Part shown: positions 1 to 56,175 of the stretch, piece by piece
Numbering within the stretch: the stretch's first letter is position 1
How the letters are laid out: each line of letters opens with the position of its first letter
Source of the DNA: Escherichia coli
GTDB taxonomy: Bacteria; Pseudomonadota; Gammaproteobacteria; Enterobacterales; Enterobacteriaceae
NCBI RefSeq assembly: GCF_003790525.1
Contig: NZ_CP033635.1
DNA length: 64,000 nucleotides
Strand: one strand, 5' to 3'
The notes under the pieces: generated by a model
What the model was told of the DNA's origin: nothing
Database searches by the model: none
The model's input: only the letters and a program-made list of their open reading frames with translations
Translations under genes and position numbers: made by a program

Positions 1-244
1 GGCCGACATCTTCTAACGCAAGGGCTAACGTACAGACTTTCGAGATGGATTCCAGCGCAAAGCGGTAATCACAGTCACCCGCACTATAGACGTTGCCATC
101 GCTGGTCACGATAGCCACTGCCGCCAGTTGACCAGGTACATTCGCCAGAAAGGGAATGTAATCGGCATTTTGTCCGCCGTTAAGTGAGTGAAATTGGGTG
201 TAAGCCTGATCCACTGCCTGCTGTAATTTGTTTGCATCTAACAT
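1..244 (-). CDS. glsA: Glutaminase 1 (GlsA/YbaS), N-terminal 81 codons only; gene continues past the window start
   Basis: Reverse-strand ATG at 242-244 with upstream GGAG; translation MLDANK...FALESISKVCTLALALEDVG matches the E. coli YbaS N-terminus; divergent from copA. Confidence 0.8.
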   Translation of the reverse strand, partial: MLDANKLQQAVDQAYTQFHSLNGGQNADYIPFLANVPGQLAAVAIVTSDGNVYSAGDCDYRFALESISKVCTLALALEDVG

Positions 245-435
245 CTTTTGTTAACTCCTTTTTATAGATGCGGGAGGTAATTCCTCACCCCGGTGCCGAT
301 TTTCAGGCATCCTGATTTAACTTAGCACCCGCAACTTAACTACAGGAAAACAAAGAGATAAATGTCTAATCCTGATGCAAATCGAGCCGATTTTTTAATC
401 TTTACGGACTTTTACCCGCCTGGTTTATTAATTTC

Positions 436-466
436 TTGACCTTCCCCTTGCTGGAAGGTTTAACCT
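436..466 (+). promoter_or_regulatory. copA promoter with CueR (MerR-family) operator: -35 TTGACC, 19-bp spacer carrying the dyad CCTTCC-N7-GGAAGG, -10 TAACCT
   Basis: Dyad 440-458 lies exactly in a 19-bp spacer between -35 (436-441) and -10 (461-466), about 40 nt upstream of the copA ATG; typical MerR-type architecture. Confidence 0.75.
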
Positions 467-506
467 TTATCACAGCCAGTCAAAACTGTCTTAAAAGGAG
501 TGTTTT

Positions 507-3011
507 ATGTCACAAACTATCGACCTGACCCTGGACGGCCTGTCCTGCGGTCACTGCGTTAAACGCGTGAAAGAAAGTCTCGAACAGCGCCCGGATGTTG
601 AGCAGGCGGATGTGTCTGTCACTGAAGCGCACGTTACCGGGACTGCCAGTGCAGAACAGCTGATCGAAACCATCAAACAAGCGGGTTATGACGCATCTGT
701 AAGCCACCCAAAGGCTAAACCGCTGGCGGAGTCATCAATCCCGTCGGAAGCACTGACAGCGGTTTCTGAGGCGCTTCCGGCAGCGACCGCCGATGACGAT
801 GACAGCCAGCAGTTGCTGCTGAGCGGCATGAGCTGCGCCAGCTGTGTCACCCGCGTACAAAATGCGCTGCAAAGCGTACCGGGCGTCACTCAGGCACGGG
901 TAAACCTGGCGGAGCGTACTGCGCTGGTGATGGGCAGTGCCTCCCCACAAGATTTAGTGCAGGCGGTGGAAAAAGCGGGCTACGGTGCGGAAGCGATTGA
1001 AGATGACGCGAAACGCCGTGAGCGCCAGCAAGAAACCGCCGTCGCTACGATGAAGCGCTTCCGCTGGCAGGCGATTGTCGCACTGGCGGTGGGTATCCCG
1101 GTGATGGTCTGGGGGATGATCGGCGATAACATGATGGTCACCGCCGACAACCGCAGCCTGTGGTTGGTTATCGGCCTGATAACCCTGGCGGTAATGTTTT
1201 TCGCCGGCGGGCATTTTTACCGCAGCGCATGGAAAAGCCTGCTGAACGGTGCAGCGACGATGGATACGCTGGTGGCGCTGGGTACTGGCGTGGCGTGGCT
1301 CTATTCGATGAGCGTCAACCTGTGGCCGCAGTGGTTCCCGATGGAAGCGCGACATCTTTACTATGAAGCCAGTGCGATGATTATCGGTCTGATCAATCTC
1401 GGCCATATGCTGGAAGCGCGCGCACGTCAGCGTTCTTCTAAGGCGCTGGAGAAATTACTCGATTTAACCCCACCGACGGCGCGCCTGGTCACCGACGAAG
1501 GTGAAAAAAACGTGCCGCTGGCAGATGTTCAGCCAGGTATGTTACTGCGCCTGACGACCGGCGACCGTGTGCCGGTAGATGGTGAGATTACTCAAGGCGA
1601 AGCGTGGCTGGATGAAGCGATGCTGACGGGCGAACCTATCCCGCAGCAAAAAGGCGAAGGCGATAGCGTCCATGCCGGGACAGTGGTACAGGACGGCAGT
1701 GTGCTGTTTCGTGCCAGTGCGGTCGGCAGCCATACTACGCTGTCACGGATCATTCGCATGGTGCGCCAGGCCCAGAGCAGCAAGCCTGAAATCGGCCAAC
1801 TGGCGGATAAAATCTCAGCCGTATTTGTGCCGGTAGTAGTGGTTATTGCGCTTGTCAGTGCGGCAATCTGGTATTTCTTTGGTCCGGCACCGCAGATTGT
1901 CTATACCCTGGTGATTGCCACCACGGTGCTGATTATTGCCTGTCCGTGTGCGCTGGGACTGGCGACGCCGATGTCGATTATTTCGGGCGTCGGGCGGGCG
2001 GCTGAGTTTGGCGTGCTGGTACGGGACGCCGACGCGCTGCAACGCGCCAGTACGCTCGATACCGTAGTGTTCGATAAAACCGGGACGCTGACCGAAGGTA
2101 AACCGCAGGTTGTCGCAGTGAAAACGTTTGCTGATGTTGATGAAGCGCAGGCATTGCGTCTGGCGGCGGCACTGGAGCAAGGTTCCAGCCATCCGCTGGC
2201 ACGAGCGATCCTCGATAAAGCAGGCGATATGCAGCTGCCGCAGGTCAACGGTTTCCGCACATTGCGCGGGCTGGGCGTGAGCGGTGAAGCTGAAGGTCAT
2301 GCGTTATTGCTGGGCAATCAGGCGCTGTTAAATGAGCAACAGGTTGATACCAAAGCTATCGAAGCGGAGATTACTGCTCAGGCATCGCAAGGGGCAACGC
2401 CTGTGCTGCTGGCGGTTGACGGGAAAGCGGTAGCCCTGCTGGCTGTACGCGATCCATTGCGTAGTGATAGCGTGGCGGCGCTGCAACGCCTGCATAAAGC
2501 GGGATATCGTCTGGTGATGTTGACCGGGGATAACCCAACCACCGCCAATGCGATCGCCAAAGAAGCCGGGATTGATGAGGTGATCGCCGGGGTGCTGCCG
2601 GACGGTAAAGCCGAAGCGATTAAACGCCTGCAAAGTGAAGGACGTCAGGTGGCAATGGTGGGCGACGGCATTAACGACGCGCCAGCGCTGGCTCAGGCGG
2701 ATGTCGGTATTGCGATGGGTGGCGGCAGTGATGTTGCCATTGAAACCGCGGCGATTACCCTGATGCGCCATAGCCTGATGGGTGTTGCGGATGCGCTCGC
2801 GATTTCCCGCGCAACGCTGCGCAATATGAAGCAGAACCTGCTCGGTGCGTTTATCTACAACAGCATTGGTATTCCGGTCGCCGCCGGTATTTTGTGGCCG
2901 TTCACCGGTACGCTGCTTAACCCGGTGGTTGCCGGAGCGGCAATGGCGCTCTCGTCGATTACCGTAGTGAGTAACGCCAACCGGTTGCTGCGGTTTAAAC
3001 CGAAGGAATAA
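507..3011 (+). CDS. copA: Cu(I)-translocating P1B-type ATPase CopA (834 aa)
   Basis: ORF track 834 aa; two N-terminal heavy-metal-binding motifs ([16 protein letters not shown]), membrane CPC motif, DKTGT phosphorylation site, GDGINDAP hinge; AAAGGAG SD upstream. Confidence 0.97.
707..718 (+). other. copA: Programmed -1 ribosomal frameshift site inside copA (slippery heptamer C CCA AAG, then GGC TAA in the -1 frame), giving the 70-aa CopA(Z) metallochaperone
   Basis: Heptamer at 707-713 is in the X XXY YYZ register for the copA frame (codons 68-69 Pro-Lys); the -1 frame stops two codons later at 716-718, directly after the first HMA domain. Confidence 0.6.
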
Positions 3012-3059
3012 GTATGTCATTGCGGATGCGCTGCTTTAGGGTGGCGCATCTGGCATCGA

Positions 3060-3195
3060 CGCATGCCTGCCGGATGCGGCATAAACGCCTTATCCGGCCT
3101 ACGATTCAGGCACAGGGTTGTAGGCCTGATAAGACGCGTAAGCGTCGCATCAGGCAATGGTGCTCGGATGCCGGATGCCGGATGCGGCGATGTTT
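3060..3195. repeat. REP/BIME cluster (at least two inverted REP units plus a partial unit with a duplicated CCGGATG)
   Basis: GCCTGCCGGATGCGGC...CGCCTTATCCGGCCTAC and TAGGCCTGATAAGACGCG...CGTCGCATCAGGCA palindromic units typical of E. coli REP, in the copA-ybaP intergenic region. Confidence 0.8.
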
Positions 3196-3314
3196 TGGCA
3201 TTACGCGACCTTTTTGCACGTTTTCCCCGGCGTGCCAAATATTTAATCCGTCCCAACTCCATTTGCGCCATCCCTCACCGCGCGCTAGCATGATATTTCA
3301 CAAAGGGAGGTCGT

Positions 3315-4109
3315 ATGGATCTGTTGTACCGGGTAAAAACGCTTTGGGCCGCGCTGCGCGGTAATCATTACACCTGGCCTGCTATCGATATCTCTCTTCC
3401 CGGCAATCGCCATTTTCATCTGATCGGCAGTATTCATATGGGTAGCCACGATATGGCTCCCCTGCCCACCCGTTTGCTCAAAAAGCTCAAAAACGCCGAT
3501 GCGCTGATCGTCGAGGCGGATGTTTCCACCAGCGATACGCCTTTTGCTAATTTGCCTGCCTGCGAGGCGCTGGAAGAGCGCATTAGCGAGGAGCAACTCC
3601 AAAACCTGCAGCACATTAGCCAGGAGATGGGCATTTCTACCTCACTCTTTTCTACCCAACCGCTGTGGCAAATCGCGATGGTTCTTCAGGCGACGCAGGC
3701 ACAAAAACTGGGGCTCCGGGCAGAATATGGTATCGATTACCAGCTATTGCAGGCGGCGAAGCAACAACATAAACCCGTGATTGAACTGGAAGGGGCAGAA
3801 AACCAGATTGCCATGTTGCTCCAGCTCCCTGACAAAGGACTGGCACTGCTGGACGATACGCTGACCCACTGGCACACCAATGCACGGTTGCTGCAACAAA
3901 TGATGAGCTGGTGGCTGAATGCACCGCCGCAAAATAATGAAATAACGCTGCCCAATACGTTCAGTCAGTCGCTGTACGATGTGCTGATGCATCAGCGAAA
4001 TCTCGCCTGGCGGGATAAATTACGCGCCATGCCGCCGGGGCGATATGTGGTCGCGGTCGGTGCACTACACCTGTATGGAGAAGGGAATTTGCCGCAAATG
4101 TTGCGCTAA
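3315..4109 (+). CDS. ybaP: TraB/GumN-family protein YbaP (264 aa)
   Basis: ORF track 264 aa with GGAGG SD upstream; sequence recognised as E. coli YbaP. Confidence 0.85.
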   Translation: MDLLYRVKTLWAALRGNHYTWPAIDISLPGNRHFHLIGSIHMGSHDMAPLPTRLLKKLKNADALIVEADVSTSDTPFANLPACEALEERISEEQLQNLQHISQEMGISTSLFSTQPLWQIAMVLQATQAQKLGLRAEYGIDYQLLQAAKQQHKPVIELEGAENQIAMLLQLPDKGLALLDDTLTHWHTNARLLQQMMSWWLNAPPQNNEITLPNTFSQSLYDVLMHQRNLAWRDKLRAMPPGRYVVAVGALHLYGEGNLPQMLR

Positions 4110-4191
4110 AAAAATGGCCAATATCGCTATTGGCCCGTCAAAGAGGAATTTCATTTTTTTATTATTATGCCGTCACTTTAAGCGACGGTGT
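4108..4191 (-). ncRNA. chiX: ChiX (MicM/SroB/RybC) small regulatory RNA, 84 nt
   Basis: Reverse complement reads ACACCGTCGCTTAAAGTGACGGCATAATAATAAAAAAATGAAATTCCTCTTTGACGGGCCAATAGCGATATTGGCCATTTTTTT, i.e. the ChiX sequence with its GC hairpin and 7-U tail; convergent with ybaP. Confidence 0.85.
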
Positions 4192-4297
4192 AACTCGATT
4201 GTCGCTCAATCTCACCATCCTGCCAATACTCTTAGGCAAGATGACTCTTTTTTTTGGACCGCCATCAGGCGTATGCTTGCTTCGTTTTTTTGTTTAA

Positions 4298-4792
<495 letters not shown>

Positions 4793-4797
4793 GCATT

Positions 4798-4827
4798 GTG
4801 CCGGATGCAAATATCCGGCACTTTCGG
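4798..4827. terminator. Putative bidirectional terminator hairpin between convergent ybaK and ushA
   Basis: 9-bp perfect stem GTGCCGGAT/ATCCGGCAC with 6-nt loop, followed by TTTCGG; sits between the two stop codons (4790-4792 and 4829-4831). Confidence 0.5.
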
Positions 4828-4828
4828 A

Positions 4829-6481
4829 TTACTGCCAGCTCACCTCACCTTTCGGTTCATAAACACTCACATCCAGCGGCGAGCTTTTCTGGATATACGC
4901 TTTAAGCACTTCGGCATCAATAAAGCCGGTATTCACATAGCCCGGTTTGTTATCAAGGCGCGGATAGCCATCACCGCCGGTGGCATTGAAGTTTAATGTC
5001 GCCATACGATAAGTTTTCGCCGGATCGACCGGTTCGCCTTTGATTTTAAGGTCGTCCAGTTTGCCGCCTTTCGCCACAAAGCTAACGTTAGCAAATTGCG
5101 GGTAGGCACCTGAATCTGGCTTCATCTGCGCGACGGCGGTCAGGTAATCAATCACCTCTTTCCCGGTCATGTCGGCATACACCACCACATTGCCGAATGG
5201 CTGCACTTTCAGCACGTTTTTATAGCTGATATCGCCTGCTTCGATAGAATCACGAATTCCGCCTCCACTCATCACCGCAAAGTCAGCACCAGTGCGATCC
5301 ATTTGGGCTGCCAGAATTAACCGCCCCATATTGGTCTGTACAAAACGCACTTTGTCACGATCGCCTTCCAGACGACCATTGGTTTCGCCTATTTTCACTT
5401 CCAGCTGCGCTTTGCCTTTGTTCTGGAACGGCGATAACAGCGAGATCATTTGCTGGTTTTCAGCGATTTCAGGAGTGTAAAGCACGCGCTCGCTTTTCCC
5501 GTCTTCCCAGGTCACTTTCTTCTTCAGGTTCACCGGAATCAGCTGGTAGTTAACCATTTTCATTTCGCCATTACGAAACTCAAAATCAGCCCGTCCCACG
5601 TATTTGCCCCACTCATGCGCCTGCACAATCCAGATGCCGTTTTGTTGATCCGGTTTGCATGGCGTACCTGGCACGTAATCGACCTGTTTTTTGTTTTCTG
5701 CCGCCATGCAGACCGGATCTTGCGAGTGACCACCAACGATCATCGCCAGCGATCCGGCAGGCAGCGCGCGCGCCATCTCCACATCGCCCGGTGCGTTAGA
5801 GCCGTGCTCACCATTGTCGTAATGCCCCATATGGGTCGCCGCGATAATAATGTCTGGCTTTTCTGTCTGTTGCAGCTCCTGAATCACCAGCTTCGCTTCA
5901 TCGGCGGGCTTACGGAACTCAATATCGGTGAAGTTTTCTGGGTTGCCTAACTTCGCTGTATCATCCGTCGTCAGGCCAATAACGGCAATTTTCAGATCCT
6001 GACGCTTAAACAGCGCCCATGGTTTAAACAGGCGCTCGCCGGTACTTTTCTGGTAGATATTGGCAGAAAGTAACGGGAACTTTGCCCACTTTTCCTGCTG
6101 GCGTAATACGGTGAGCGGGTTATCAAATTCATGATTACCGATTGCCATCGCATCGTAGCCCACCAGATTCATGCCGCGAAAATCAGGTTCGGCATCCTGT
6201 AAGTCAGACTCGGGCACGCCAGTGTTAATGTCACCACCGGAAAGTAGCAGCACGCTACCGCCTTCAGCCGCAACCTCTTTGCGGATACCATCTACCAGCG
6301 TTTTTTGCGCCGCCAGACCATATTCGCCATATTCATTGCGCCAAAAATGCCCATGATGATCATTGGTATGCAGAACTGTAATTTTGTAGGTTTTATCCTG
6401 CTCATACGCCAGAGCAGCTTCACTCGCCAGTGTAAATGTGGTTAACAGTGCTAACGCCACGCCCCGCTGCAATAATTTCAT
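4829..6481 (-). CDS. ushA: Periplasmic UDP-sugar hydrolase / 5'-nucleotidase UshA (550 aa)
   Basis: ORF track 550 aa; N-terminal signal peptide, metallophosphatase motifs (HTNDHHG, GNHEFD). Confidence 0.95.
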   Translation of the reverse strand: MKLLQRGVALALLTTFTLASEAALAYEQDKTYKITVLHTNDHHGHFWRNEYGEYGLAAQKTLVDGIRKEVAAEGGSVLLLSGGDINTGVPESDLQDAEPDFRGMNLVGYDAMAIGNHEFDNPLTVLRQQEKWAKFPLLSANIYQKSTGERLFKPWALFKRQDLKIAVIGLTTDDTAKLGNPENFTDIEFRKPADEAKLVIQELQQTEKPDIIIAATHMGHYDNGEHGSNAPGDVEMARALPAGSLAMIVGGHSQDPVCMAAENKKQVDYVPGTPCKPDQQNGIWIVQAHEWGKYVGRADFEFRNGEMKMVNYQLIPVNLKKKVTWEDGKSERVLYTPEIAENQQMISLLSPFQNKGKAQLEVKIGETNGRLEGDRDKVRFVQTNMGRLILAAQMDRTGADFAVMSGGGIRDSIEAGDISYKNVLKVQPFGNVVVYADMTGKEVIDYLTAVAQMKPDSGAYPQFANVSFVAKGGKLDDLKIKGEPVDPAKTYRMATLNFNATGGDGYPRLDNKPGYVNTGFIDAEVLKAYIQKSSPLDVSVYEPKGEVSWQ

Positions 6482-14293: not shown

Positions 14294-16168
14294 TCAGGAA
14301 ACCAGCAGCTGGTTCATACGACGAATAAACAGGTTCGGATCTTCCAGCGTGCCGCGTTCTGCCAGCAGCGCCTGATCCAGCAGCAGTTCTACCCACTCGC
14401 TGAACTTGGCTTCATCTTCAGTATCTGCCGCACGTTTCACCAGTACGTGATCCGGGTTCAGTTCGAAGATGTATTTCACTTCCGGCACTTTCTGGCCCGC
14501 TGCGGCAAACAGTTTCGCTATCTGGGTGCTCATTTCGTCCGCGTCGGTAGAGACAATCGCTGGCGTATCGGTCAGACGGTGAGTCAGACGGACATCTTTC
14601 ACGCGCTCGCCGAGCAGGGCTTTCACACGGTCGATGAACGGAGTCAGTGCTTTCTCCGCTTCTTTCGCGCTCTCATCAACTTCGTCAGCCAGTTTTTCCA
14701 GCGACTCGTCAACTTTAGACACAGACTGGAACGGTTTACCGTCGAACTCAGTCAGATAGTTCATCATCCACTCATCGATGCGGTCGGAAAGCAGCAGAAC
14801 TTCGATGCCTTTCTTACGCAGCAGTTCCAGGTGCGGGCTGCTCTTCGCTGCCGCATAGCTGTCTGCGGTGATGTAGTAGATTTTCTCCTGCCCTTCTTTC
14901 ATGCGGGAAACGTAGTCTTCCAGAGATACGGTCTGCGCAGAAGAATCGGTATGGGTAGAAGCAAAACGCAGCAATTTGGCGATCGCTTCCTGGTTAGCGA
15001 AATCTTCCGCCGGACCTTCTTTCAGTACCAGGCCAAACTGTTGCCAGAAGGTCTGGTATTTTTCCGCGTCGTCTTTCGCCAGTTTTTCCAGCATTTGCAG
15101 CACACGCTTGGTCAGCGCATTGCGCAGGTTACGCGTTACCGTGCTGTCCTGGAGGATTTCACGGGAAACGTTCAGCGGCAGATCGCTGGAGTCAATCAGA
15201 CCACGCACGAAGCGCAGATAGTTCGGCATGAACTGTTCTGCGTCGTCCATGATGAACACACGCTGGACGTACAGTTTCAGTCCGTGTTTATGATCGCGGT
15301 TCCACATATCCCACGGAGCCTGGGACGGAATGTACAGCAGGCTGGTGTACTCCTGCTTACCTTCAACGCGGTTGTGGCTCCAGGTCAGCGGATCGTTAAA
15401 GTCGTGGGCGATGTGTTTGTAGAACTCTTTGTACTCTTCATCGGTGATTTCCGACTTGTTACGAGTCCACAGCGCCTGCGCTTTGTTGATTTTCTCCCAG
15501 GAGATAACGGTTTCGCCGTCTTTCTCTTCGCGTTTTTCGATCTCTACCGGCAGCGCGATATGGTCGGAGTATTTGCTGATGATGGAACGCACGCGCCAGT
15601 CATCGAGGAACTCGTCTTCGCCTTCACGCAGATGCAGGGTGATTTCAGTACCACGATCTTCTTTGGTGATATCGGCAACGGTGTATTCACCTTCGCCAGC
15701 CGATTCCCAGAAGACGCCATTTTCTGGTTTTTCGCCTGCCGCGCGAGTACGCACGGTCACTTTGTCGGCCACGATAAACGCAGAGTAGAAACCAACACCA
15801 AACTGACCGATCAGCTGGCTGTCTTTCGCCTGGTCAGAACCCAGGGATTCGAGGAATGATTTGGTGCCGGATTTAGCGATAGTCCCCAGATGGTCAATCA
15901 CTTCGTCGCGGGTCATCCCCACGCCGTTATCGGAGATGGTCAGCGTGCGCTTGTCTTTATCGAAAGAGACACGAACGCGCAGTTCGCCATCACCTTCGTA
16001 CAGGTCCGGGTTAGAGAGCGCGCGGAAACGCAGCTTGTCCGCCGCATCGGAGGCGTTAGAGATAAGCTCACGCAGGAAGATTTCTTTATTGGAATAGAGA
16101 GAATGGATCATCAGGTGCAGAAGCTGTTTCACTTCTGACTGAAAACCACGAGTTTCTTGTCCTTTCAT
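14294..16168 (-). CDS. htpG: Chaperone HtpG (Hsp90), 624 aa
   Basis: ORF track 624 aa; GHKL ATPase N-domain sequence recognised. Confidence 0.97.
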
Positions 16169-16217
16169 GTAGGTCTACCTCAATAATGCCATTTTAAGGT
16201 TAAAAACAGGATGAGGG

Positions 16218-16250
16218 AGAGATGGGGACAAGGGAGAATAATTTCAAGCG
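16218..16250 (-). promoter_or_regulatory. sigma32 heat-shock promoter of htpG
   Basis: Transcribed strand reads CTTGAAA-N14-CCCCATCT about 45 nt upstream of the htpG ATG; matches the sigma32 consensus. Confidence 0.65.
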
Positions 16251-16277
16251 AGAGCAGGTGATCCTGCTCTCGTTTGC

Positions 16278-16882
16278 TTAAAAACGAATCTTATGACGCC
16301 CGGCAAGGGAGTGTGACAGCGTGGTGCCATCGACCATTTCCAGTTCGCCGCCAACCGGTACGCCATGAGCGATTCGGCTGGCTTCCACGTCATATTGCGC
16401 ACAAAGCTCGGCAATGTAGTTAGCGGTAGCTTCACCTTCAACCGTGGGATTGGTGGCGAGGATCACTTCAGTGATTTTTTCCTCTGCCAGACGCTGTTCC
16501 AGACGATCAAGGCCGATATCATCCGGACCGATGCCGTCCAGCGGTGACAGATGCCCCATCAACACAAAATAACGACCTGAAAACTGCCCCGTCTGCTCAA
16601 TGGCGTAAATGTCCGCCGGACTCTCCACCACGCAGATTTGACCGTTTTCCTGACGACGCGGATTCGAACAGATGTTACAGACTTCCTGTTCGGTGAAGGT
16701 GCGGCAATCGGCGCAGTGGCCGATTTCCGACATCGCCCGGGTGAGCGCCTGCGCCAGACGCATCCCGCCGCTACGATCGCGCTGAAGCAGCGTGAACGCC
16801 ATACGCTGCGCCGACTTCGGGCCAACGCCCGGCAGACAGCGCAGTGCTTCCATAAGCTGTGTTAACAGCGGGCTGGTTTGCA

Positions 16883-46938: not shown

Positions 46939-49384
<2,446 letters not shown>

Positions 49385-49575
49385 GGTGTAACAACACTCC
49401 GCTGTAGATGACTGTGTACCTCACGCAACGTATCGATGCGCGCAAAGGCCTATTGTGACAAGAAACGGGGGCAATTGTCAGCCCACAAGACGCAGAAAGT
49501 CACCGATTACAAATAAAAAAGGCACATCAGTAGATGCGCCCTTGAACTTCGTCACATCCCCACTGGGGACAACGC

Positions 49576-52411: not shown

Positions 52412-52493
52412 AGAGCTCTCTCTTAGTTTAATTTCCGCCAGGTAATCAGATGACACGACTGTGCTTCACGCCATCTATTAACATGTACGTCAG

Positions 52494-52524
52494 TATATGG
52501 GGATGTTTCCCCCACATTCAACGC
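52494..52524 (-). promoter_or_regulatory. sigma32 heat-shock promoter of lon
   Basis: Transcribed strand reads GTTGAAT-N13-CCCCATAT about 75 nt upstream of the lon ATG. Confidence 0.65.
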
Positions 52525-52536
52525 CGAGAATAGAGG

Positions 52537-52570
52537 AAAAATTAAAGGGGAGATAAAATCCCCCCTTTTT
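52537..52570 (-). terminator. Putative terminator after clpX
   Basis: Short GC stem GGGGA/TCCCC with 7-nt loop followed on the transcribed strand by TTTAATTTTT, 30 nt after the clpX stop. Confidence 0.5.
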
Positions 52571-52598
52571 GGTTAACTAATTGTATGGGAATGGTTAA

Positions 52599-53873
52599 TT
52601 ATTCACCAGATGCCTGTTGCGCTTCCGGCTTGCCATAAATCAGCAACGGCTTGCTTTGACCATCAATTACCGATTCGTCGATAACCACTTTTTCGACGTC
52701 TTCCATGGACGGCAGATCGTACATGGTATCGAGCAGTGCGGCTTCTACGATGGAACGCAGGCCACGGGCACCGGTTTTACGCGCCATCGCTTTCTTAGCG
52801 ATAGCATCCAGCGCCTCGTCACGGAATTCCAGATCCACACCTTCCAGATTAAACAGCGCCTGATACTGCTTGGTCAGGGCGTTTTTCGGCTCTTTGAGGA
52901 TCTGAATCAGAGCTTCTTCGCTCAGTTCATTCAACGTTGCGACAACCGGCAGACGACCAATGAACTCAGGGATCAGACCAAACTTGATCAGATCTTCCGG
53001 TTCAACCTGCGCCAGCAGTTCACCTTCGCTTGCTTTGTCGGACTTCGCTTTTACCGTCGCGCCAAAACCAATGCCGGAACCGGTTTCTACTCGATGGGAA
53101 ATCACTTTATCCAGACCGGCAAACGCACCGCCACAGATAAACAGGATCTTAGAGGTATCAACCTGCAAGAATTCCTGCTGCGGATGTTTACGCCCACCTT
53201 GCGGCGGAACAGCAGCTACCGTACCTTCGATCAGTTTTAACAGTGCCTGCTGTACGCCTTCACCGGAAACGTCTCGGGTAATGGACGGGTTGTCTGACTT
53301 ACGAGAAATCTTGTCAATTTCATCGATGTAGACAATCCCGCGCTGCGCTTTCTGTACGTCGTAATCGCACTTCTGCAACAGCTTCTGAATGATGTTTTCA
53401 ACGTCTTCGCCCACATAACCGGCTTCGGTCAGCGTGGTTGCGTCAGCCATGGTGAACGGAACGTCCAGCAGGCGCGCCAGCGTTTCGGCCAGCAGCGTTT
53501 TACCGGAACCGGTCGGACCGATCAGCAGAATGTTACTTTTGCCCAACTCGACGCCATTGCTGGTATCTCCGTTGCGCAGACGTTTGTAGTGGTTGTATAC
53601 CGCGACCGCCAGCACTTTTTTCGCCTGTTCCTGACCGATAACGTAATCGTCCAGGTGGTTGCGAATTTCATGCGGCGTCGGTAGCGCACTGCGTTCACGA
53701 TGCGGTGCAACTTCTTTAATCTCTTCGCGAATGATGTCGTTACATAAATCAACACATTCGTCGCAGATATACACGGATGGACCGGCAATCAGCTTGCGCA
53801 CTTCATGCTGGCTTTTGCCGCAAAAAGAGCAATACAGCAATTTGCCTGAGCCATCTTTGCGTTTATCTGTCAT
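52599..53873 (-). CDS. clpX: ATP-dependent Clp protease ATPase subunit ClpX (424 aa)
   Basis: ORF track 424 aa; N-terminal zinc-binding CSFCGK...C...C; Walker A GPTGSGKT. Confidence 0.97.
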
Positions 53874-53998
53874 GGGTCAAAACCTCTTCTTTGTTCTTTG
53901 TGCCGCACACGACGACGCAAATGCCATTCTCAGGCGCAAGCCGCTTACAGCGTTGTGCCGCCCTGGATAAGTATAGCGGCACAGTTGCGCCTCTGGCA

Positions 53999-54622
53999 TC
54001 AATTACGATGGGTCAGAATCGAATCGACCAGACCGTATTCCACCGCTTCAGGGGCGGAAAGGAAGCGATCGCGCTCGGTATCACGTTCAATCTGTTCTAA
54101 TGATTGACCCGTATGAAGCGCCATAAGTTCATTCATGCGCCCTTTAACTTTCAGAATTTCACGGGCATGAATTTCGATATCGGTCGCCTGGCCCTGGTAG
54201 CCGCCCAACGGCTGGTGAATCATCACGCGCGAATTCGGCAGGCAGAAACGTTTACCTTTTGCCCCTGCAGTCAGCAAGAAAGCGCCCATCGAGGCCGCCT
54301 GGCCCATACAGATGGTGCTGACATCAGGCTTGATAAACTGCATGGTGTCATAGATAGACATCCCGGCAGTAATCACCCCGCCTGGAGAGTTAATGTACAG
54401 ATAGATATCTTTTTCTGGGTTTTCTGCTTCCAGGAACAGCATCTGCGCCACAATCAGGTTAGCCATGTGGTCTTCAACCTGGCCAGTCAGAAAAATGACG
54501 CGTTCCTTAAGTAGACGAGAATAGATATCAAAAGAGCGCTCACCTCGTGAGGTCTGTTCAATGACCATCGGCACCAGCGCCATATGGGGTGCAAAGTTAT
54601 CTCGTTCGCCGCTGTATGACAT
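53999..54622 (-). CDS. clpP: ATP-dependent Clp protease proteolytic subunit ClpP (207 aa)
   Basis: ORF track 207 aa; catalytic Ser context GQAASMGA. Confidence 0.97.
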
Positions 54623-54697
54623 TTCCGTCTCCTGGATAAAATTGAAAAAACCTGCTGTACCGATTGTAACCTTATGGACGGATTATCAGCTAGTCCC

Positions 54698-54733
54698 TGT
54701 GTTATGGGTACGGCATCACCATATTTCAAGCAT
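54698..54733 (-). promoter_or_regulatory. sigma32-type promoter of clpP-clpX
   Basis: Transcribed strand reads CTTGAAA-N15-CCCATAAC about 70 nt upstream of the clpP ATG. Confidence 0.55.
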
Positions 54734-54801
54734 AACAATCTTTTGTTGTTACGCTAACACCGAAAGAGGCTTTTCGCACGGTTCCATGCAAAATTCATGA
54801 C

Positions 54802-54833
54802 AAAAAAAAGCCCACCACCTGGCGGTGACGGGC
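54802..54833 (-). terminator. Intrinsic terminator of tig
   Basis: Imperfect GC-rich hairpin GCCCGTCACC...GGTGGTGGGC followed on the transcribed strand by T8, 35 nt after the tig stop. Confidence 0.65.
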
Positions 54834-54867
54834 CTTTGTGCGAATTTAGCGCGTTATGCTGCGTAAA

Positions 54868-56175
<1,308 letters not shown>

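Follow-up and report, generated by a model that had tools for sequence, protein, structure and literature searches.

Canonical sigma-32 promoters, such as dnaK P1 and groE, carry the consensus CTTGAAA-N13-15-CCCCATnT, which is said to go back to Cowing et al. in 1985 and Nonaka et al. in 2006. In the classical heat-shock regulon of E. coli, lonp, clpPp3 and htpGp1 are already known as curated promoters that were mapped by experiment, and all three lie in the 64-kb stretch of E. coli DNA analysed here (the window). On its minus strand the window carries tig-clpP-clpX-lon-hupB-ppiD, plus htpG 36 kb further on, and the intergenic settings of the three sites are clpX-lon, tig-clpP and recR-htpG. 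The genes and gene boundaries referred to below are as follows:

54868-56166, minus strand: tig, open reading frame
53999-54622, minus strand: clpP, open reading frame
52599-53873, minus strand: clpX, open reading frame, annotated as clpX in NC_010498.1 and NC_000913.3
52599-52601, minus strand: TAA stop codon of clpX, end of the open reading frame
52411, minus strand: ATG of lon, start of the open reading frame
47513-49384, minus strand: ppiD, open reading frame
14294-16168, minus strand: htpG, open reading frame

Queries of 1 kb (clpX-lon) and 2 kb (htpG) were each matched in 5424 of the 5426 complete E. coli genomes, and over both stretches the strain is 100% identical to SMS-3-5. Compared with K-12 MG1655, the clpX-lon and tig-clpP intergenic regions are identical base for base, and the DNA upstream of htpG shows one single-nucleotide difference (A to T), located 2 nt short of the +1. 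The interval 52494-52570 is almost certainly the E. coli clpX-lon intergenic region, comprising the clpPX terminator and the lon sigma-32 promoter, with equivalent promoter sites upstream of clpP and htpG.

Working from the letters and their open reading frames, the original prediction had read heat-shock promoters upstream of lon, clpP and htpG, whose elements we delineated as follows:

52516-52522, minus strand: lon promoter -35 element GTTGAAT, a string match present once
52495-52502, minus strand: lon promoter sigma-32 -10 element CCCCATAT, a string match at N13 from the -35
52492-52497, minus strand: overlapping sigma-70-like -10 element TATACT, 18 nt past TTGAAT
52484-52486, minus strand: lon transcription start, at 52486 (Cho 2014) and 52484 (RegulonDB lonp)
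54701-54730, minus strand: clpP sigma-32 promoter clpPp3, with -35 CTTGAAA at 54730-54724, -10 ACCCATAA at 54709-54702 and start at 54694
16212-16248, minus strand: htpG sigma-32 promoter, with -35 CTTGAAA at 16248-16242, -10 CCCCATCT at 16227-16220 and start at 16212/16213

The predicted strings GTTGAAT-N13-CCCCATAT for lon (52522-52495) and CTTGAAA-N14-CCCCATCT for htpG (16248-16220) each occur exactly once, on the minus strand. The string proposed for clpP, CTTGAAA-N15-CCCATAAC, is likewise present once on that strand (54730-54701), but its -10 at 54708-54701 is 1 nt out of register with the orthologues, by which it is better written N14-ACCCATAA; locus and start are otherwise those of RegulonDB clpPp3. 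Scored against CTTGAAA/CCCCATnT, the sites match at 14/14 positions (htpG, N14), 12/14 (lon, N13) and 12/14 (clpP, N14).

Published transcript starts agree with these assignments. Cho et al. used 5′-triphosphate-enriched RACE under four conditions, and their Tables S4 and S6 give a 51-nt sequence for every start, with the start at its end, which leaves the conversion of coordinates to the window in no doubt. The lon 5′ end at K-12 position 458037 (window 52486; 1744 reads) lies 9 nt past the -10, the clpP 5′ end at 455829 (window 54694) lies 7 nt past the predicted -10 and 8 nt past it in the consensus register, and the htpG 5′ end at 494300 (window 16212) lies 8 nt past the -10 (Cho et al. 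2014, PMC3923258). All three fall in the range of 5-10 nt downstream of the -10 on which the prediction had been staked; the exception is the RegulonDB +1 of lonp (458039, window 52484), which at 11 nt is just beyond that range and 2 nt from the RACE start. In RegulonDB, as reprinted in the S2 Table of Shimada et al. (2017, PMC5493296), RpoH promoters are listed at each of the three sites with IDA, TIM or IEP codes: lonp is assigned to RpoH with an IDA code, clpPp3 has its +1 at 455829 (window 54694) with experimental evidence codes, and htpGp1/p2 have theirs at 494299/494308 (window 16213/16204), also with experimental codes. For lonp the window differs in nothing of substance from the RegulonDB/EcoCyc entry, the locus being the same and the K-12 region base-identical, and it holds for htpGp1/p2 as well that the locus is the same, apart from the single difference near +1.

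Moreover, sigma-32 ChIP-chip regions cover the clpP, lon and htpG promoters; the signal at the htpG promoter is from sigma-32 only, and at lon sigma-70 and sigma-32 signals are both present (Cho 2014, PMC3923258). Mapped starts, sigma-32 ChIP-chip and RegulonDB therefore bear out the reading of heat-shock promoters upstream of lon, clpP and htpG: at every one of the three sites, -35 and -10 boxes with the appropriate spacing are found together with a published start 6-10 nt downstream and published occupancy in vivo. In two-box architecture, spacing and distance to the start they resemble the canonical sigma-32 promoters. Heat induction and sigma-32 dependence of lon, clpP and htpG are supported by curated databases (RegulonDB codes IDA and IEP) and by prior knowledge. 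As to conditions, the starts at 54694 (clpP) and 16212 (htpG) were called in stationary and/or glutamine samples, not in heat shock, and lon alone was called under heat shock (PMC3923258). The lon start at 458037 was called in stationary, glutamine and heat shock samples, with a printed upstream sequence that ends in ...GTTGAATGTGGGGGAAACATCCCCATATACTGACGTA (PMC3923258). In genomic SELEX with the RpoH holoenzyme, lonp, clpPp3 and htpGp were all absent from the sites recovered; the S2 Table of that study puts the lon, clpP and htpG promoters under 'not identified as constitutive', and the main-text RpoH SELEX tables list none of them (Shimada 2017, PMC5493296). This negative result carries low weight, because groSp, grpEp, clpBp and hslVp were also missed, which points to a low sensitivity of the assay.

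Sigma-32 ChIP signal has been reported elsewhere in the window too, at clpX-proximal starts (K-12 456426 and 456560; about 53960-54100, covering the clpP 3′ end and the clpP-clpX junction), at cyoA and at ybaK/ybaP (Cho 2014, PMC3923258). The sigma-32 scan found no obvious consensus motif in these regions at the clpP-clpX junction, upstream of cyoA and at ybaK/ybaP.

To follow the lon promoter across species, we scanned one genome per species with a degenerate pattern for Lon residues 7-25, which is blind to the upstream DNA. The scan yielded 120 loci, one per species, from Enterobacterales, Vibrionales and Aeromonadales, 117 of them with enough flanking sequence, and RTTGAAT-N13-CCCCATAT was present at most 200 nt from the lon ATG in 108-110 of these 117 species. 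In an alignment anchored on the -10, the boxes TTGAAT and CCCCATAT reach about 2.0 bits per column (1.8-2.0 for TTGAAT; 101 distinct sequences from three orders), while the 13-nt spacer remains mostly at 0.0-0.7 bits, rising to about 1 bit at the pair of positions that adjoins each box. Invariant boxes at a fixed spacing around a free spacer read as a classical promoter footprint. Purifying selection on the boxes with a free spacer was seen for lon and for clpP. About 47 of 77 species, all of them Enterobacterales, retain the clpP promoter in the form CTTGAAA-N13/14-CCCCAnnT. The canonical sigma-32 consensus has TTGAAA; at lon, nearly all species examined have TTGAAT in the -35.

Conservation at lon runs on through CCCCATATACT, with TATATT, TATAGT or TATAAC in divergent genera, so a sigma-70-like -10 is preserved as well, in keeping with the joint sigma-70/sigma-32 ChIP signal. 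Unlike canonical sigma-32 promoters, the lon promoter shares its -35 with an overlapping sigma-70-like -10, TATACT. Could the promoter be essentially a sigma-70 promoter, TTGAAT-N18-TATACT, with an incidental CCCCAT match to sigma-32? A sigma-70 scan gives 9/12 matches for this arrangement, the starts at 52486 and 52484 bracket the ideal sigma-70 +1 at 52485, the sigma-70 ChIP signal is present, and conservation reaches the last bases of TATACT/TATAnT; for the position of the start, sigma-70 geometry fits at least as well as sigma-32 geometry. Nevertheless, the CCCC lies outside any sigma-70 element and stays unchanged across about 110 species with a variable spacer, and the sigma-32 ChIP signal, the RpoH assignment of lonp with its IDA code and the detection of the lon start under heat shock all speak against sigma-70 acting alone, which we regard as very improbable. 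A dual sigma-70/sigma-32 reading of the lon promoter fits all data better than sigma-70 alone. In the favoured account, sigma-32 (RpoH) RNA polymerase recognises GTTGAAT and CCCCATAT, 13 bp apart and ~20 bp beyond the terminator, and the lon mRNA starts at an A ~9 nt downstream of the -10 and carries a 5′ UTR of ~75 nt; basal expression of lon by sigma-70 probably proceeds from this -35 in combination with the TATACT that follows at 18 bp.

Beyond the promoter, the last ~35 nt of the lon 5′ UTR (52412-52445, minus strand; CCTGGCGGAAATTAAACTAAGAGAGAGCTCT before the ATG) are conserved at near 2 bits per column among 77 Enterobacterales, with the rest of the UTR free, and a purine-rich AAGAGAGAG within the UTR is kept even in Vibrio. 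This conserved 3′ end of the UTR gave no Rfam match and may be a translational control element.

Immediately upstream of the lon promoter lies the end of the preceding operon:

52537-52570, minus strand: clpPX intrinsic terminator, consisting of an A-tract, an 11-bp hairpin (52568-52544) and the T-tract AATTTTT (52543-52537)

The hairpin, AAAGGGGGGAT-TTT-ATCTCCCCTTT, is G/C-rich, has 11 bp and a folding energy of -15.5 kcal/mol, and is followed by AATTTTT. It starts 31 nt past the clpX stop codon and ends 21 nt short of the lon -35, so the description of the clpX terminator and the lon sigma-32 promoter as sitting back to back was accurate. Term-seq places an RNA 3′ end at K-12 458758 (window 52541), in the T-tract, with an intrinsic score of 6.2, where values above 3 are taken as suggestive; the same 3′ end was also flagged within a Rho-termination region, with a Rho score of 1.66 (Adams et al. 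2021, PMC7815308). In all 109 species tested, the lon -35 was preceded by a hairpin and T-tail, with a median of 19 nt between hairpin 3′ end and -35 (IQR 18-21); in the Vibrio loci among those printed the distance was smaller, about 10-13 nt. The stems themselves differ between genera (GGGGGGA/TCCCCCC, GAGGG/CCCTC, GGAGG/CCTCC), and this conservation through sequence change was judged by inspection of the stems rather than on a formal covariation statistic. The element thus shows a G/C hairpin followed by a U-tract, 3′ ends within the U-tract and a structure kept despite sequence change, and transcripts of the clpP-clpX operon end at this Rho-independent terminator, at an 11-bp G/C hairpin and then a T-tract.

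Since the T-tract of the terminator falls at about -51 to -57 relative to the lon start, the usual location of an UP element, it could serve the lon promoter too. Terminator and promoter might form a coupled unit rather than being neighbours by chance, and in such a unit the T-tract would act as an alpha-CTD contact or an insulator and Rfam sraA would be a by-product; we advance this proposal tentatively and consider it rather unlikely.

The small RNA SraA reportedly came from the screen of Argaman et al. in 2001. The corresponding Rfam family matches the opposite strand of the same DNA:

52483-52578, plus strand: full-length match to Rfam RF02029 (sraA), scoring 106.7 bits (gathering threshold 56)

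This match covers the same 96 bp, exactly antisense to the lon promoter, and one hairpin serves both sraA and clpX as terminator. One might suppose that the conserved sequence exists to encode antisense SraA and that promoter and terminator only appear beside it as secondary features, as the strength of the match, the occurrence of sraA in 11 of the 17 genera sampled, each time antisense to lon, and the placing of SraA between clpX and lon in sRNA catalogues would suggest. The pattern of constraint argues otherwise: two invariant boxes around a free spacer are the footprint of a promoter and not of an RNA structure. The sole helix of sraA apart from the terminator (helix 1) is formed between the complement of CCCCA and the spacer, and it showed no covariation, with 76.7% of cells paired against 76.5% after shuffling (86 distinct sequences), without real compensatory change, and with the four inner G pairs broken in 27-47% of the 86 sequences. 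RNA structure as the cause of the conservation was therefore rejected, pairing being no better than in shuffles. Furthermore, the DNA where an SraA promoter would be expected (52440-52480) is poorly conserved, with no conserved antisense promoter visible, and the table of Cho et al. contains no opposite-strand start in the interval (PMC3923258). The lon boxes are also kept in Vibrio and Aeromonas, yet the single loci sampled from Vibrio, Aliivibrio and Aeromonas gave no sraA match above threshold. We give the antisense explanation very little credence. Because the lon promoter and the clpX terminator constrain the same bases, the conservation of the Rfam family looks like a by-product of these two elements, and it is to them rather than to RNA structure that we attribute it.

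The lon promoter also coincides with an insertion-sequence target:

52499-52512, no strand assigned: IS186 target GGGG(AAACAT)CCCC, formed by the lon spacer and the CCCC of the -10, as read from the sequence

The target motif of IS186 is 5′-GGGG(N6/N7)CCCC-3′ (PMC5009759), and the lon promoter is a known IS186 hot spot (PMC3045373, PMC11251521); the insertion present there in BL21(DE3) has been tied in the literature to loss of lon expression. The lon promoter region is split in 56 of 5425 E. coli records. In BL21(DE3) (NC_012971.2), IS186 lies between GTTGAATGTGGGGGAAACATCC and GGGAAACATCCCCATAT, parting the lon -35 from the -10, with junctions at 460-500 and 1800-1840 of the extracted lon locus. 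Insertions at this exact site are found in genomes of the BL21 and REL606 lineage and in some clinical isolates, the junctions having been read in NZ_CP137697.1 and BL21(DE3), whereas the window carries the same GGGG(N6)CCCC intact and uninterrupted. The G-run of the target occurs in Escherichia alone, with GTGTGGG standing in its place in Citrobacter, Enterobacter and their relatives. In NZ_CP137697.1, labelled 'plasmid pEcFELIX533.1' (128.8 kb), positions 1-6133 join chromosomal lon-hupB-ppiD via one IS186 to hokE/ybdK, which looks like either a circle from recombination of the lon-promoter IS186 with the hokE-adjacent IS186 or a misassembly.

At clpP, a second start and an upstream terminator accompany the sigma-32 promoter:

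54722-54737, minus strand: second, stronger clpP start at 54722, inside the sigma-32 -35
54798-54837, minus strand: hairpin and T-run of the tig terminator; the clpP -35 follows about 70 nt downstream

The start at 54722 corresponds to K-12 455801, with 3166 reads in all four conditions, E, S, G and H (Cho 2014, PMC3923258). Judged by its spacing, which is ideal, we infer that it would fit an extended -10 sigma-70 promoter, TGtTATGCT (54737-54729). As this start lies within the sigma-32 -35, clpP has two nested promoters 28 nt apart.

Upstream of htpG, a strong hairpin follows recR (16242-16283, minus strand); folding of a 76-nt segment gave -26 kcal/mol, with z -4.65. The htpG -35 (GCTTGAAA) forms the 3′ arm of this hairpin, and here the upstream terminal hairpin overlaps the sigma-32 promoter and does not merely abut it.

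RegulonDB lists a fourth sigma-32 promoter in the window:

49461-49489, minus strand: ppiDp1, with a weak motif CTTGTGG-N12-CCCCGTTT (49489-49463) and a listed +1 at 49461

The entry places ppiDp1 at K-12 461062 (window 49461; reprinted in PMC5493296), and the ppiD starts of Cho 2014 show sigma-70/sigma-38 binding only (PMC3923258). The only sigma-32-like motif at ppiD is a 10/14 match, too weak to count as a clear one, and the listed +1 is just 2 nt past it; motif and start do not fit each other in geometry, which makes the sigma-32 assignment tentative.

How much the motifs would weigh by themselves was gauged by counting matches to CTTGAAA-N12-16-CCCCATNT with at least 12/14 positions on both strands of the 64 kb, against dinucleotide shuffles. 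The window holds exactly three such sites, those of lon, clpP and htpG, and shuffles average 2.3. By number alone, the motifs do not exceed chance, and a count of consensus matches would not by itself have justified the call. What is above chance is the intergenic position, the correct strand, the distance of 44-100 nt to the ATG, the mapped 5′ ends and the cross-species footprint. The view that the three matches are chance resemblances without function can appeal to the shuffles, which reach 2.3 equally good matches in 64 kb, but it is already refuted by the coincidence of mapped starts, ChIP signal, curated entries and deep footprint at all three sites, and we put its likelihood at practically nil.

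The prediction had further stressed that three heat-shock promoters share one 40-kb stretch. This is true and unremarkable, being about the genomic average, and the count missed the fourth promoter, ppiD. From the 312 sigma-32 targets that Cho et al. (2014, PMC3923258) found by ChIP, about 2.7 would be expected per 40 kb, and the four curated sigma-32 promoter loci, ppiDp1 included, span 38.5 kb. When 69 curated non-computational RpoH promoter loci were placed at random in the genome, some 40-kb window held at least three loci in 100% of simulations and at least four in 69%, and three loci fell within 5.2 kb in 17%; on this basis the idea of a statistically significant cluster of promoters was rejected. 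That the three or four promoters are held together by selection as a heat-shock 'island' is suggested by the clpP, lon and ppiD promoters lying within 5.2 kb, with htpG 36 kb away, and by all the genes encoding proteases, chaperones or foldases. Against it stand these random trials, the similar groups at clpB-grpE and fxsA-groS-mutL-miaA, and the more than 30 unrelated genes that separate ppiD from htpG, and we consider selection for such an arrangement improbable. Of the proposed compact proteostasis cluster of tig, clpP, clpX, lon and htpG, what stands is a neighbourhood of proteostasis genes; the promoter density is ordinary, and tig is without sigma-32 binding, its ChIP-chip signals being those of sigma-70, sigma-38 and sigma-54 (Cho 2014, PMC3923258).

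These results indicate that a reading of sequence alone can place sigma-32 promoters to the base. Four annotations overlap within 96 bp of the clpX-lon region: the clpX terminator, the dual-sigma promoter of lon, the sRNA family on the antisense strand and the hot spot for IS186. These overlaps matter when the conservation of 'sraA' is read or lon expression is engineered, as in the repair of lon in BL21. If it is true that the spacing of terminator and promoter reflects functional coupling, the sraA family would be a by-product of that arrangement and not a selected small RNA.
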